From Candidatus Iainarchaeum sp. (lineage in GTDB: Archaea; Iainarchaeota; Iainarchaeia; Iainarchaeales; JAAZKV01), in the NCBI GenBank assembly GCA_026397015.1, contig JAPLVR010000004.1:6126-70125 (forward strand): 64,000 nt of DNA. The letters are read 5' to 3'. The translations under genes and the position numbers were made by a program. Below the pieces are notes generated by a model that had not been told where the DNA came from, ran no database searches, and was given only the letters and a program-made list of their open reading frames with translations. Below are positions 1 to 64,000 of the stretch, one piece after another; position 1 is the first letter of the stretch, and every line of letters begins with the position of its first letter.

Positions 1-746
1 AAATTTTTGTTGAACAGCAATTGTTTCAAATAACTTACCCTGTTTCGCGGCTTGACATTCATTGCCTTGTGAAGCCTTTTTTTCTTCAGAAAGTGATTGT
101 AATAGTCCACAACTTCCCTAAGTTCTTTGCCGGCCTCTTCCCGATAAAATGCATCCGCTATCGACATTTCTCCTATTTTTCTTTCCTTTATTTTTTTTAA
201 TGCCCTTGCACGTCTGGCAGGCGGCAGGTGCCTTAAAACTTTTTCCAAAATAAAGTTTCTTCCGTCTATGAGTTCTTTCTGTATTTTTGGCGGAAGCTCA
301 TTAACGCCGATTTTGCTACCATAAATTCTTTGCCTCCTTTCCGCCAAACCCGTTCTTCTCCTGATTTCTTTGACTTTTTGTGCATATTCTTCTTTTGATA
401 AAGGCATTTTCGCTTGCTCTTCAAACCGTTGAACTTCAACTTTTGTTCTTTCTTCAAGCCGTTTTCTCCACAAAGGGGATTCTCTAAAAAGAATGTAACT
501 CAAAAATCTTTGTCCGCGGTTTCTAACGGTTTTTGCGGTTGTGCCCGACTGCAAACTTCCTGTTCTAAAACTTAGTTCGGTCGGAGAAATCGTTTTTTTC
601 TTCACTCTTGTCAGAATTGCCCTTCTTTTTTCAGGGCGCACTCTGAATCTCTTTAATTCCCTGTCAAGTTCGGCCCAGTTTCCGAGGATTTTTGCTTGTG
701 CCGCCGGTCCCATTCTCTGTACAGGCTCCCTTCTTTTAACCGCCAT
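1..746 (-). CDS. Hypothetical basic protein, partial (runs off the left edge; absent from the ORF track)
   Basis: Hand translation from ATG at 746 (MAVKRREPVQRMGP...) stays open to position 1; TATA-like TTAATAAA ~30 nt upstream. Confidence 0.75.
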   Translation of the reverse strand, partial: MAVKRREPVQRMGPAAQAKILGNWAELDRELKRFRVRPEKRRAILTRVKKKTISPTELSFRTGSLQSGTTAKTVRNRGQRFLSYILFRESPLWRKRLEERTKVEVQRFEEQAKMPLSKEEYAQKVKEIRRRTGLAERRQRIYGSKIGVNELPPKIQKELIDGRNFILEKVLRHLPPARRARALKKIKERKIGEMSIADAFYREEAGKELREVVDYYNHFLKKKRLHKAMNVKPRNRVSYLKQLLFNKN

Positions 747-820
747 AGATAGATTACCTTGTTAGCCATTTATTAAGTTTTTCATTCGGGAATTCATTAC
801 GGGTCTTTGGCGATGGTTAC

Positions 821-1717
821 ATGAATTGGGTTTTCTTCGCATTGGCTGCGCCGATGGCATATGCTTTCAGCGAAATTTTGGCAAAATTTTTTCTAGAAAA
901 AAAAGTTAAAAACGGCGCCACACTCCTTTCGGCGATTTCAATTTTCCGCATAATAATGGCGGTTGCAATCCTTTTAATTGTCCCAATTTCTTTTTTTGAA
1001 ATTTCCATTTCGAGCTGGCTATTGGTAATTCTTCTTGGGTTTGCGGCATTTGCCCATTACCTGTTCCTGCTCCGCGGCATGGAAAAAGAAGACGCTTCAA
1101 CTGTTGTTGCACTTGTTTTTGTTTTCCCAGTTTTTGTCGCGCTTTTAGCAACTATTTTTTTGGGGGAGCAGCTTTCGCCGCTTAAATGGTTCGGGATGGT
1201 CGCAATTGTTGTCGGCGTCATTTTGGCATCAATAAAAAAGTTTGATAAAAAAATAATTTTTTCAAGCGTTCTCGGATTAATAATTCTCTCAGCCTTTTTT
1301 GAGGGAATAGTTGAAATTCTTGACAAGGTTTTACTTTCAGAAATGAATTTTTGGCACGTTTCGGCATTCACTTATATTTTCCTATCCCTGTTTTCATTTT
1401 CCTTTCTTTTGAAAAAAAAGAATTTCGGGGACTTCAAAAAATTTGTCGGGGATAAAAAAATTTTGGCATTTGTCGGGTTGAAAGAGCTTATTGCGATGGG
1501 CGGTTTTTTCGCATTCCTCATTGCCGCCTCGACGACTGACGTTTCAGTTGTTTCGGCGCTATTTGCCACGCAGCCATTCTTTGTTCTGGTTTTTGCAATT
1601 ATTAGCACAATATTTTTTCCCAAGTTTTTGAAGGAGTCGGTTGAAAAGAAAACGCTTTTGGTCAAAATCGTTGCAATAATTTTTATAGTAGTTGGGGCGA
1701 TAATTATTTCAGCATAG
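821..1717 (+). CDS. EamA/DMT family transporter
   Basis: 298 aa, ~10 hydrophobic segments in two repeats, DMT-like motifs (FLGEQLSPLKWFG; VSVVSALFATQPFFV). Confidence 0.85.
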   Translation: MNWVFFALAAPMAYAFSEILAKFFLEKKVKNGATLLSAISIFRIIMAVAILLIVPISFFEISISSWLLVILLGFAAFAHYLFLLRGMEKEDASTVVALVFVFPVFVALLATIFLGEQLSPLKWFGMVAIVVGVILASIKKFDKKIIFSSVLGLIILSAFFEGIVEILDKVLLSEMNFWHVSAFTYIFLSLFSFSFLLKKKNFGDFKKFVGDKKILAFVGLKELIAMGGFFAFLIAASTTDVSVVSALFATQPFFVLVFAIISTIFFPKFLKESVEKKTLLVKIVAIIFIVVGAIIISA

Positions 1718-1725
1718 GTGATGAT

Positions 1726-3012
1726 GTGCCGGCACCAAGAAAAAAGGGAAAGCTTCCAAGAAATTATATTTTAGTTGCGGCAAAAAAAGTTTTTCCGGAA
1801 ATGGTGCGGTTGAGACGCAATATTCACAGCCAGCCGGAGCTTAGTTTCAGGGAATTTAAAACAACAAGGCTTGTTTTGGGCGAATTGAAAAAATTAGGGA
1901 TAGTTGGCAGGGTGACGAAGGCAAAAACAGGAGTAATTGCAACAATAAATGGTTCTGGAAAAGGCAGAACAATTGCAATAAGGGCAGATATGGATGCGCT
2001 TCCAATTCAGGAAACTACAGGGCTTTCATTCGCCTCAAAAAGAAAAGGCGTAATGCATGCATGCGGCCATGATTCGCATATCGCAGTTTTGCTTGGTTTG
2101 GCTAAAATTTTGACGGAATATAACAGGCGACACGGTCTCCCCGGAAATATACGCCTGATATTTCAGCCAGGCGAGGAATCGGGAAGCAGAACTTATGGGC
2201 CCGGTTCTTCATTTATGGTCAATGAGGGCGCTATGAAAGGAGTTAGTGCAGTTCTTGGATTTCACTTTATATCAGAATACAAACTTGGAAGGGTTCATGT
2301 ACGAAAAGGGATAAGGGACCAAGCAATTTCCTTCATAAAATTTTCGATTTCTTCCGATGGCGGGCATGGAGCGTCAAATAGCGAAATTCCGGACATAGTT
2401 GCAATAAGTGCAAAGATTAGGGCAGATATTGATAGAATTTATAACCCGCAGAAACCCTCCAAATTAAGGGCGGTTTCGTTGCGTTGCGACCACGGCCAAG
2501 TTTCTGGCACAGACAGATTTAATGTGATGCCGACGGGCATAACACACACGCTTGCATTTAGAGCATCGGTTCCGGAAAAAGAAAGAACCAGGATTTTCAA
2601 AAAATTGCTGACAAATATCAGGGGGGCGTATTTGAAAAATGGAAAACCCTGGAAGCAAAAAGGGCTTCGTTTCAGAATAACCTCTATCGAATATGGGTTG
2701 CCCGCGACTGAAAACGACCCAAAATTAGCAGAACTTGCAAAAGAAGTTGCAAAGGAGCACCCTGATGTGAATGCAATTTATTCACGTCAAACAGTCGGCA
2801 GCGAAGATTTTTCAGGTTACACTCACAGCAAGCTTGGAAGGATTCCGGGGCTTTACATTTCAATCGGCACAAGTTCGAAGGAATTAATTAAAAGGCATGG
2901 CGGCAGAAAGCCGGACCATCATGAGTCGTCATTCGATATTGATGAGAGGGCGATGCGCATAGCCGTGTCGCTGCTTGCGGAAACATGCATAAGATATTTG
3001 AACAAAAGATAA
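1726..3012 (+). CDS. M20/M25/M40 family amidohydrolase with a basic N-terminal leader
   Basis: Motifs RRNIHSQPELS, RADMDALP, MHACGHD, FQPGEE, GSEDF, HH; GGTGA RBS. Confidence 0.9.
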   Translation: MPAPRKKGKLPRNYILVAAKKVFPEMVRLRRNIHSQPELSFREFKTTRLVLGELKKLGIVGRVTKAKTGVIATINGSGKGRTIAIRADMDALPIQETTGLSFASKRKGVMHACGHDSHIAVLLGLAKILTEYNRRHGLPGNIRLIFQPGEESGSRTYGPGSSFMVNEGAMKGVSAVLGFHFISEYKLGRVHVRKGIRDQAISFIKFSISSDGGHGASNSEIPDIVAISAKIRADIDRIYNPQKPSKLRAVSLRCDHGQVSGTDRFNVMPTGITHTLAFRASVPEKERTRIFKKLLTNIRGAYLKNGKPWKQKGLRFRITSIEYGLPATENDPKLAELAKEVAKEHPDVNAIYSRQTVGSEDFSGYTHSKLGRIPGLYISIGTSSKELIKRHGGRKPDHHESSFDIDERAMRIAVSLLAETCIRYLNKR

Positions 3013-3064
3013 TTTACGGCAAAAATTAATTTATGGTAAAAAGTCATTTGGAGTAAAAAATAAT

Positions 3065-63210: not shown

Positions 63211-63220
63211 AATATTTTGT

Positions 63221-63442
63221 TTAAGCCCAGTTGTGATTCGGGTTTCTGGGAACAATTATCCACATGGTGATGTAAAGTAAGAGCCCAAAGCCCCACAAAA
63301 GCGTTGCAAGAATCCAGAGCACCCTTACTATTACCGGGTCAATATTAAAGTATTCGGCAACACCGCCGCACACTCCCCCCAGAATCCTGTCCTTTCTGGA
63401 ACGATAAAGGCGCTTTACTTCCGGTTGATTCTTTTTTGCCAT
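63221..63442 (-). CDS. pspC: PspC domain protein
   Basis: RLYRSRKDRILGGVCGGVAEYFNIDPVIVR. Confidence 0.9.
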   Translation of the reverse strand: MAKKNQPEVKRLYRSRKDRILGGVCGGVAEYFNIDPVIVRVLWILATLLWGFGLLLYITMWIIVPRNPNHNWA

Positions 63443-63630
63443 ATTGAAAATAATTAGGCGCAATAAAGATAAGAAGGGTATTTTTGGGTAAAAATGCGAA
63501 GAAGCAGTTCGCAAGTTTGAAAAGACGATGAGGCGGGGGTTCCCATGCTGGTGGTGAGAAAAAAGCGCGTAAAGGGAAGTGTGGTGATTGCCAGCACAAT
63601 GTTTAAGTATTTGAACGGGAGAATTTATTC

Positions 63631-63903
63631 ATGGAACTACACAAAGCCCCTCCAAGGAAAAGAAAGGGCATTGATGGAATATTGGTCGGTTTTATCAATC
63701 GCCGCCGGCAGATTCTCGCCGAGAGAGAAACTGCGGTTGGGGAAGCGCTTTTGCCAAGCGTCCGCAGAATATATTCAGGTGTTGCTAAAAGCAGAACCCG
63801 AGACAGCAAAAACCGTATAAAAAGATGGTATTTTGATATGCAGATTGACTTGGCAAAAAGGCTTGGATTCAAGGTGAGGGCTGTAAAGCTGCCGAAAAAA
63901 TAA
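63631..63903 (+). CDS. Small basic hypothetical protein
   Basis: TTTAAGTA ~28 nt upstream; MELHKAPPRKRKG. Confidence 0.55.
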   Translation: MELHKAPPRKRKGIDGILVGFINRRRQILAERETAVGEALLPSVRRIYSGVAKSRTRDSKNRIKRWYFDMQIDLAKRLGFKVRAVKLPKK

Positions 63904-63935
63904 TTAAGAAACTTTTTGGAAGATTATTTGGAGAA

Positions 63936-64000
63936 ATGATTATGGCAAAAAGAAAAATTGCAGGGAAGGGGCGCGTTTTTTCCGAACCGTTAAAGTTGAT
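63936..64000 (+). CDS. Partial ORF with a basic N-terminus (runs off the right edge)
   Basis: MIMAKRKIAGKGRVFSEPLKL..., GGAG RBS. Confidence 0.45.
   Translation, partial: MIMAKRKIAGKGRVFSEPLKL

Follow-up and report, generated by a model that had tools for sequence, protein, structure and literature searches.

Protein segments rich in lysine (Lys, K) and arginine (Arg, R) that bind RNA are found as extensions of ribosomal proteins, as arginine-rich motifs and as the Lys-rich N-domains that are appended to eukaryotic aminoacyl-tRNA synthetases. We know of no archaeal secretion system that recognizes an N-terminal K/R tail. Here, we describe a stretch of 64,000 nucleotides from Candidatus Iainarchaeum sp. 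(referred to below as the window), in which a first-pass annotation had noted about 17 open reading frames (ORFs) that begin with a short, strongly basic leader and had proposed that this leader is a shared targeting signal, possibly that of an effector system of a DPANN symbiont. Such an undescribed effector-targeting system would be important if true, but the evidence presented below does not support it. We lean instead towards a reading in which the K/R-rich N-termini are the N-terminal peak of a supercharge that extends over whole proteins of a soluble, species-specific accessory class, where they would form putative polyanion-binding tails.

The window comprises positions 6126-70125 of contig C4 of an assembly of 898,628 bp in six contigs (C1-C6; 42% G+C; 85% complete), here labelled G000. 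Genes were called with a crude caller of our own, which scores in-frame hexamers by log-odds (training set: ORFs of 300 residues or more) and selects genes greedily, and which yielded 856 genes covering 87.5% of the genome. Ahead of unambiguous ATG starts a TATA-like A/T-rich box begins at -31 to -29, which implies leaderless mRNAs, and a GGTGAT Shine-Dalgarno (SD) sequence is found at -11 to -9; starts were picked from these signals together with codon type and coding potential, and the key statistics were unchanged when longest-ORF or first-ATG starts were used. A protein was counted as carrying a leader when its net charge (K+R-D-E) was at least +4 in residues 2-16 from the start chosen by the model. 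Two relatives were used for comparison, i.e., a same-genus genome that was fetched whole (G001; 871,508 bp; median protein identity to G000 of 74%) and a genome from another family of the same order (G020; 25% G+C; 800 kb fetched). Loci totalling ~1 Mb from bacteria and from Thermoplasmatota or Methanobacteriota that share a bacterial-type MetK served as controls, with genes called by a simple ORF-length rule.

The observation of K/R-rich protein starts in the window is real, and the first-pass annotation is to this extent partly confirmed. All 12 N-termini that it quoted translate as claimed at the claimed coordinates, 16/62 called window genes pass the +4 rule, and three more small ORFs bring the number near the original count. 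Elsewhere in the genome the frequency is 94/777 (12%; Fisher p=0.005, a value that is post hoc because the window was chosen for the pattern), and shuffling the window proteins' own residues yields an expectation of 5.4 leader genes. The hydrophobic h-region is indeed mostly lacking: a hydrophobic stretch, defined as a Kyte-Doolittle 11-residue mean of at least 2.2 within the first 40 residues, is seen in only 10/110 leader proteins genome-wide, compared to 26% of non-leader proteins. The raw number of leaders owes something to A-rich codons 2-6, to a few over-extended starts and to two doubtful ORFs. These two ORFs, at 20863 and 63631, have a near-zero coding score (0.025 per codon, as compared to 0.30 for the ORF at 51323) and are therefore doubtful as genes, while at 24087, 34740 and 36375 the start either is ambiguous or was probably placed too far upstream. 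A TATA box ~30 nt upstream, from which stand-alone transcripts had been deduced, was recovered as an AT-rich box in 8/12 examples (weak to moderate scores of 2.0-5.7 with our own weight matrix; e.g., AATAAATAC ahead of 27618 and CAATAAATACA ahead of 55628), but no box was found at 1726, 20863, 34740 or 63942. The M20 amidohydrolase gene at 1726 starts with GTG, preceded by a strong SD sequence, 9 nt after the upstream stop codon and therefore does not have a stand-alone transcript. Once orphan status is controlled for in a logistic model, the association between TATA box and leader is not significant.

The background against which these numbers are to be read is a basic proteome, with 9.8% Lys, 4.1% Arg and a median isoelectric point (pI) of 9.0. 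A net charge of at least +4 is reached by 13.5% of N-termini, 5% of internal 15-residue windows and 17% of C-termini in G000 (13.8%, 4.6% and 17.3%, respectively, with the simple ORF rule), and by 13.2%, 3.7% and 17.8%, respectively, in G020. In control loci of at most 55% G+C the corresponding values are 3-5%, 2.3-2.6% and 5-12%. In bacteria, C-termini are universally biased towards K and R (Weber et al. 2020, PMC7246954). At the nucleotide level, third codon positions are enriched in A in codons 2-6 only (0.38, compared to 0.29 inside genes). Proteins with a leader have a median pI of 10.0, compared to 8.9 for the others, and their C-termini are also more basic.

The frequency of leaders increases with the charge of the remaining protein, from 4.6% for proteins with an acidic core to 33.7% at a core density of at least +9 per 100 residues. 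Because N-terminal charge tracks whole-protein charge, the basic start is the front end of a supercharged class rather than a detachable leader. This class is mostly composed of orphans, i.e., genes without an ortholog in G001. Leaders are found in 65/651 proteins with a same-genus ortholog (10.0%) and in 45/188 without (23.9%), a 2.4-fold higher rate in the latter (odds ratio 0.35 for the former, p=3.6e-6), and the effect persists with core charge controlled (orphan log-odds 0.97, bootstrap 0.55-1.40; odds ratio ~2.6). An initial definition of "core" by orthologs in G020 had concealed this effect (p=0.12), which was exposed by those in G001. An Arg content of at least 8% is seen in 40/188 orphans and 39/651 conserved proteins, the distribution among orphans being bimodal. 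When the class is defined as soluble orphans with a charge density of at least +6 per 100 residues, it has 64 members genome-wide, 13 of which are in the window (odds ratio 3.6, p=6e-4); they have a pI of ~10, contain ~20-29% K+R with K in excess of R, and constitute ~8% of genes. The data thus support an accessory class with basic N-termini that is real and concentrated in the window.

Within the supercharged class the net charge per 10 residues is +2.37 in residues 2-11, where K+R amount to 29% and D+E to 6%, then +1.79 in residues 12-21 and about +1.3 in residues 22-41; it is +0.78 in mid-protein and +1.81 in the last 10 residues. The N-terminal excess over a protein's own density is +1.82 per 15 residues (p=1e-7) in these orphans. 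Proteins below the charge threshold have an N-terminal excess of +0.15, which is not significant, and a C-terminal excess of +0.67, as is usual. A purely generic explanation, in which both termini are basic because the proteome is Lys-rich, was dropped on this ground, the N-terminal excess being confined to the mostly-orphan supercharged class. The earlier statement that core genes lack the leader is true of the window as a trend (leaders on 5/32 genes that have a same-genus ortholog and on 11/30 that do not), but it does not hold genome-wide.

The window is collinear with contigs c9 and c6 of G001, the synteny being interrupted by supercharged orphans that are inserted singly or in pairs. These orphans reside in G000-specific segments at -399 to 3012, 9141-9950, 11941-12468, 45498-46394, 49145-51925, 52849-54452, 55654-56685 and from 63936 onward; the gene at 54828-55628, which adjoins the 55654-56685 segment, has a 30%-identical counterpart in G001. 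The latter genome harbors R-rich basic orphans of its own, which are different genes and make up 29/165 of its orphans; the syntenic stretch c6:7.5-15 kb holds several. The G+C content of the class equals the genome average (0.43). Small paralog families link the genes at 45498-46352 and 55654-56535; those at 50573-51220, 52849-53400 and C5:344766; those at 54828-55628, C1:201003 and C1:177777; and the gene starting at 746 (-) with that at C1:179163. The C5:344766-345680 protein (304 residues) resembles 50573-51220 (-) in its N-terminal half and 52849-53400 (+) in its C-terminal half, i.e., these genes are a split or fused pair. No significant matches to the orphans were found in Pfam, PHROGs, NCBIfam or PADLOC, and no relatives of the kinase-like or the 50573-51220 families were found among IMG/VR viral contigs. 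The flanks of the insertion at 45498-46394, when read by eye, displayed no obvious repeats, and no integrase search was made.

The enzyme domains that had been assigned to the leader proteins fared unequally. The best supported is the M20 amidohydrolase (1726..3012, +; GTG start with a GGTGAT SD sequence), which matches Pfam PF01546 (4e-32, 112 bits against a cut-off of 24.6) and in which the MHACGHD block, among other columns, does not vary in a set of 15 sequences. None of 30 relatives has the gene, and its nearest homologues are bacterial amidohydrolases of 33-38% identity that begin exactly past the 14-residue basic extension MPAPRKKGKLPRNY. The protein has a net charge of +34 and a pI of 10.2, compared to medians of -15 and 5.45 among its homologues (n=119), only three of which have a basic N-terminus. 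The methyltransferase assignment of 27618..28952 (+; pI 10.4), a class I S-adenosylmethionine (SAM)-methyltransferase-like protein, is supported through its homologues: its own match to Spermine_synth (18.7 bits) is below the cut-off of 22.9, while two homologues carry a precomputed PF13489 and several are named SAM-dependent methyltransferase at their source. Fold comparison gives weak support for the kinase-like protein (54828..55628, -; MAARRVNR; 266 residues, pI 10.5), which has no Pfam match. Its AlphaFold model is of low confidence as a whole (pTM 0.60; residues 1-47 with pLDDT < 50), and its top 50 Foldseek hits are nearly without exception kinases or kinase-like folds (best E 3.6e-3, TM-scores of 0.2-0.3). 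The match of 34740-35690 to an HD domain has E=0.14 (12.9 bits, below the cut-off of 22), and the JAB-like domain of 50573-51220 amounts to an HTHP motif without a profile match; the model of the latter protein is poor (pTM 0.34; residues 1-17 with pLDDT < 50). The models were run on three-sequence alignments, and that of the kinase-like protein was the only one used for a fold search.

Judged from the predicted proteins, a positive N-terminus has been kept within two of these families, the kinase-like and the methyltransferase, over phylum-scale divergence. The kinase-like family is present in 29/151 genomes of the phylum, with tandem copies in some cases. In 18/18 homologues the pI is 9.8-10.8, and residues 2-31, which precede the first conserved motif (L)AYSPE, carry a net charge of at least +5; the charge of this region is kept, while its sequence varies. 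Among full-length methyltransferase homologues, 25/30 have a basic N-terminus (median pI 10.1), and those with a label are from DPANN-type archaea (Diapherotrites or Micrarchaeota). Here the family conserves a motif as its N-terminal segment, roughly +x+LRRAV..G..K+PL...IQ.MFHP, which the public gene call for this locus omits (371 residues, beginning 73 residues downstream). Linkage to a gene for a GHMP (mevalonate-type) kinase is seen in three families: the present one and two others of the order, in which the methyltransferase gene again follows the GHMP kinase. Where it can be traced in such alignments, the basic N-terminus is family-specific, as a conserved motif in the methyltransferase and as charge only in the kinase-like proteins.

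K/R-rich N-terminal extensions are also found on conserved cytoplasmic proteins. Among 332 reciprocal-best orthologs of G000 and G020, 36 G000 proteins have basic N-termini, 16 of which are shared with G020 (mostly ribosomal proteins) and 20 of which are specific to G000, usually as extensions of 10-60 residues; conversely, 16 orthologs are basic in G020 alone. K/R-rich residues precede the first Pfam domain in aIF2-gamma (C5:284934-286394; domain at residue 45), aIF1A (C1:49535-49924; residue 48), MetRS (residue about 11), LonB (C1:85392-87401; residue 52), deoxyhypusine synthase (C2:20455-21459; residue 36) and ScpA (C3:82498-83361; residue 80); with the exception of MetRS, these extensions are roughly 35-80 residues long. 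They are conserved in G001 (the aIF2-gamma tail reads MQKKEKTGKAKEKKPRA... in G000 and MQKKEKISKAKEKKPRA... in G001) and absent from the G020 orthologs. The presence of K/R extensions on core cytoplasmic proteins makes a shared export or effector meaning very unlikely. A tail is also seen at the other end of a conserved 381-residue protein (C1:19261-20430; pI 10.9), which has no Pfam match at E <= 1e-5 and carries a C-terminal K/R-rich repeat of ~80-90 residues (…KIRKARIGKKLKKRIGGRGWRLRKRILKIRKARFGKKLRK…).

From the above discussion, several explanations of the basic N-termini can be compared. In the host-directed version, the basic N-terminus would be a shared signal by which accessory enzymes enter an export route, to work as effectors inside or on the surface of a host cell. 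This proposal can draw on the 2.4-fold higher frequency in species-specific genes, on the clustering of leader genes in fast-turnover hot spots, on the enzyme-like bodies of some of the proteins (M20, kinase-like fold), on the lack of the extension in bacterial M20 homologues and on the phylum-wide retention of a positive N-terminus in two families. However, no motif or positional constraint is found beyond composition: pairwise local-alignment scores of 100 leaders barely exceed those of residue-shuffled ones (mean 16.17 vs 15.72, 99th percentile 29.0 vs 28.4, maximum 39 vs 41), and the information per position is at most 0.27 bit. A candidate 35-residue N-terminal module, MP+K.P..ERIRKL..PD[YF], was rejected, as a hidden Markov model (HMM) of it recovers only its three source genes in G000; a public fragment that carries it proved to be a deletion fusion of two neighbouring window genes. 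The positive n-region typical of Sec signals is present in 110/839 proteins by the +4 rule, but the h-region is absent in 100 of these 110. TatC (PF00902), which belongs to twin-arginine translocation (Tat) and is present in 11/14 control genomes, was not found in the 85%-complete G000; the Tat-like candidates are five loose ones genome-wide, and the sole one in the window is 24087, the start of which is doubtful. No secretion locus turned up in the window, and no systematic search for other secretion machinery was made. Moreover, the supercharge spans whole proteins with C-termini that are as basic or more so, comparable extensions occur on ribosomal proteins, initiation factors, MetRS, LonB, deoxyhypusine synthase and ScpA, and the "leader" of the methyltransferase is a conserved motif of its family, encoded by a gene linked to lipid-pathway genes. 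Neither a transferable targeting signal nor a host-directed effector system is borne out by these data, and we regard the latter as very improbable. The N-termini could alternatively be a neutral by-product of a Lys- and A-rich genome, of A-rich early codons on leaderless mRNAs, of start drift and of over-extended calls. The elevated third-position A in codons 2-6, the basic proteome, the two quoted ORFs of near-zero coding score, the doubtful starts at 24087, 34740 and 36375, the gain and loss of extensions between families (20 in G000 only, 16 in G020 only) and the universal C-terminal bias (PMC7246954) are all in line with this explanation. On the other hand, the nucleotide bias ends after codon 6 while the charge gradient spans ~20-40 residues, N-terminal charge is kept in the 18 kinase-like and 25 of the 30 methyltransferase homologues at identities of 23-77%, and the extensions of core proteins are conserved in sequence within the genus. 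Because proteins that are not supercharged display no N-terminal excess, a genome-wide mutational or translational bias is not the main cause, and we consider the neutral explanation unlikely.

The orphans could also be cargo of mobile elements or viruses, or conflict (defence/counter-defence) genes, basic for the targeting of DNA or RNA. Insertions of one or two genes relative to G001, different R-rich orphans in the syntenic c6:7.5-15 kb stretch, small paralog families spread over several islands, the patchy and sometimes tandem kinase-like family and the existence of deletion and fusion variants are in line with such genes, but the searches of PHROG, PADLOC, NCBIfam and, for two families, IMG/VR gave no matches, the orphan G+C content is that of the genome, and the insertion site examined by eye has no obvious repeats. 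This origin also seems unlikely, and we assign no greater probability to a bolder scenario, in which DPANN archaea of this phylum would maintain a fast-turnover repertoire of supercharged soluble enzymes (e.g., the M20 amidohydrolase of net charge +34, kinase-fold proteins and methyltransferases) and the tails would be an address, either by tethering to the cell's own RNA or DNA as a separate polyanion-bound sub-proteome or, in the manner of cell-penetrating Arg/Lys peptides, by entry into, or sticking to, the host. We return to the reading in which the basic N-termini are the peak of a whole-protein supercharge. The class overlies a proteome that is basic overall, and its tails would be disordered polycationic segments that hold enzymes on polyanions. 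RNA, DNA or ribosomes would be the likeliest partners, as with the K/R extensions on ribosomal proteins, aIF2-gamma, aIF1A and MetRS, and for the lipid-pathway methyltransferase an anionic membrane may be an alternative. Binding to the nucleoid or ribosome, which the first-pass annotation had mentioned in brackets, is the most plausible role. Several points weigh against this reading. The M20 amidohydrolase has no obvious reason to bind nucleic acid; the enrichment in patchy, species-specific genes with promoters of their own would suit conflict genes, mobile genes or effectors as well; in control loci above 55% G+C, 11% of N-termini were basic, the control set being small (~100-290 ORFs per group) and called by ORF length alone; gene calls and starts were predicted by our own crude caller from sequence alone; and the structure models are of low confidence (mean pLDDT 52-58), so that disorder of the tails is only suggested.

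The remaining leader genes of the window vary in character. At its left edge, a 381-residue orphan (1..746, -; MAVKRREPVQR...; pI 10.4, 12.3% R, with an HExxH motif) extends 399 nt beyond the window; it is absent from G001 and has no match in Pfam, PHROG, NCBIfam or PADLOC. A supercharged orphan of 269 residues (MAEKMGARKEIKKKSKE; 9141..9950, +; pI 10.4) is a single-gene insertion relative to G001, as is the 284-residue MKPQRKRAPKK protein (45498..46352, -), which has a TATA-like box at -32. The paralog of the latter, a supercharged orphan of 293 residues (MPRKIPSRAERIRK; 55654..56535, -), recovered only itself in a word-based homolog search, and an HMMER profile of the pair gave four matches in 1.84 billion representative proteins, i.e., the two paralogs, a 96-residue deletion variant and a weak match to a repeat protein. 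In P0123, a public metagenome protein of 96 residues, ~35 residues from the start of 55654-56535 are fused to ~25 from the end of 54828-55628; it represents a related population in which the two-gene unit has undergone a deletion. The supercharged orphans of 215 (MRAVATRAGRKPKK; 50573..51220, -) and 183 residues (52849..53400, +) are those that align to the two halves of the C5:344766 protein. Between them, a 200-residue orphan (MPIRIIAGRTKFGRKK; 51323..51925, +) has a good coding score and was missed by the greedy caller. At the right edge, a supercharged orphan that starts with MAKRKIAGKGR (63942..64000, +; pI 10.3) continues beyond the window to 241-243 residues.

In the 175-residue orphan at 11941..12468 (-), the basic start is followed by a hydrophobic stretch, MKPTKRPGFIKRAGRKILIGTAAATLGLGI, and therefore looks more like a signal peptide or membrane anchor than like a leader alone. 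A 346-residue orphan (53412..54452, +) has a K-rich, low-complexity start and then a hydrophobic segment; its Lys-rich start MKKIKSENTRKIKDEKKKKRKRQK is encoded by an A-rich repeat of 8-nt spacing at 53384-53495, which could be open to length change by slippage. Further leaders are those of a radical SAM/SPASM protein (MVRIKFLFRREPKAYSKKKRSSK; 16783..17874, -), a conserved ACT-domain protein (MKSAKNAKKGK; 43647..43949, +) and a 4Fe-4S ferredoxin-type subunit (36375..36701, +), the first 21 residues of which (MKKQKTKEQAQ...) do not align with the G001 ortholog and are either an N-terminal extension or the result of an over-extended start. The HMG-CoA synthase (24087..25196, +) carries its "leader" MKRRKLIAKVIKYLQIKFVKGFF ahead of a conserved MAGIVGW start and probably has an over-extended TTG start, while the 316-residue orphan at 34740..35690 (+) has a GTG start that overlaps the upstream gene and an alternative ATG at 34827. 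The two doubtful ORFs encode 76 residues (MRLKIKVGVGQKRK; 20863..21093, +), without a promoter or SD signal, and 90 residues (MELHKAPPRKRKG; 63631..63903, +), with a TATA-like box at -29.

The genes at 27618 and 34740 are found inside a 14.5-kb mevalonate-pathway-like cluster (21213-35690), which also holds the HMG-CoA synthase and GHMP kinases at 28925 and 33413; because it has no counterpart in G001, isoprenoid-precursor synthesis looks accessory here. A SAM synthetase (MetK; 47656-48843, -) is of the bacterial rather than the archaeal type by motif. Its closest relatives (53-82% identity) are from metagenome-assembled genomes (MAGs) of DPANN and candidate phyla radiation (CPR) organisms, from Thermoplasmatota and from many bacteria, the best being an unclassified archaeal MAG (82%) and MAGs labelled Micrarchaeota. 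Five copies of an element of ~21 nt, AACACAATTTCTTGGACATTT, are present in the same orientation at 43564, 56590, 58119, 58638 and 61979, where they immediately adjoin small genes; this right half of the window is rich in orphans.

K/R-rich N-termini are common in the basic, Lys-rich proteomes of tiny archaea and occur on core cytoplasmic proteins, and they should therefore not be read as signals. We found no description of a supercharged, species-specific class with an N-terminal charge peak, which recurs with different genes in the sister species; if this class is a sub-proteome that is tethered to polyanions or related to conflict, it would help to account for some of the many "hypothetical" proteins of DPANN genomes. 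In common with Sec and Tat signal peptides, the proteins have positive charges in the first 5-15 residues, but in contrast to these peptides nearly all lack an h-region (100/110), TatC was not found and the window holds no firm Tat-like candidate. The closer resemblance is to RNA-binding basic tails, which are likewise terminal, K/R-rich and D/E-poor, conserved in charge but variable in sequence and without a hydrophobic core. Unlike those tails, however, the segments described here reside on species-specific enzymes without a known link to nucleic acids (M20, kinase-like fold), the proteins are supercharged over their full length, and binding is putative. With the basic proteomes of genome-reduced symbionts this genome shares a high pI of the whole proteome (median 9.0), and with the universal C-terminal K/R bias (PMC7246954) it shares basic last 15 residues in 17% of proteins; it differs from both in its additional, bimodally Arg-rich class of orphans with an N-terminal charge peak, which the general bias does not predict.

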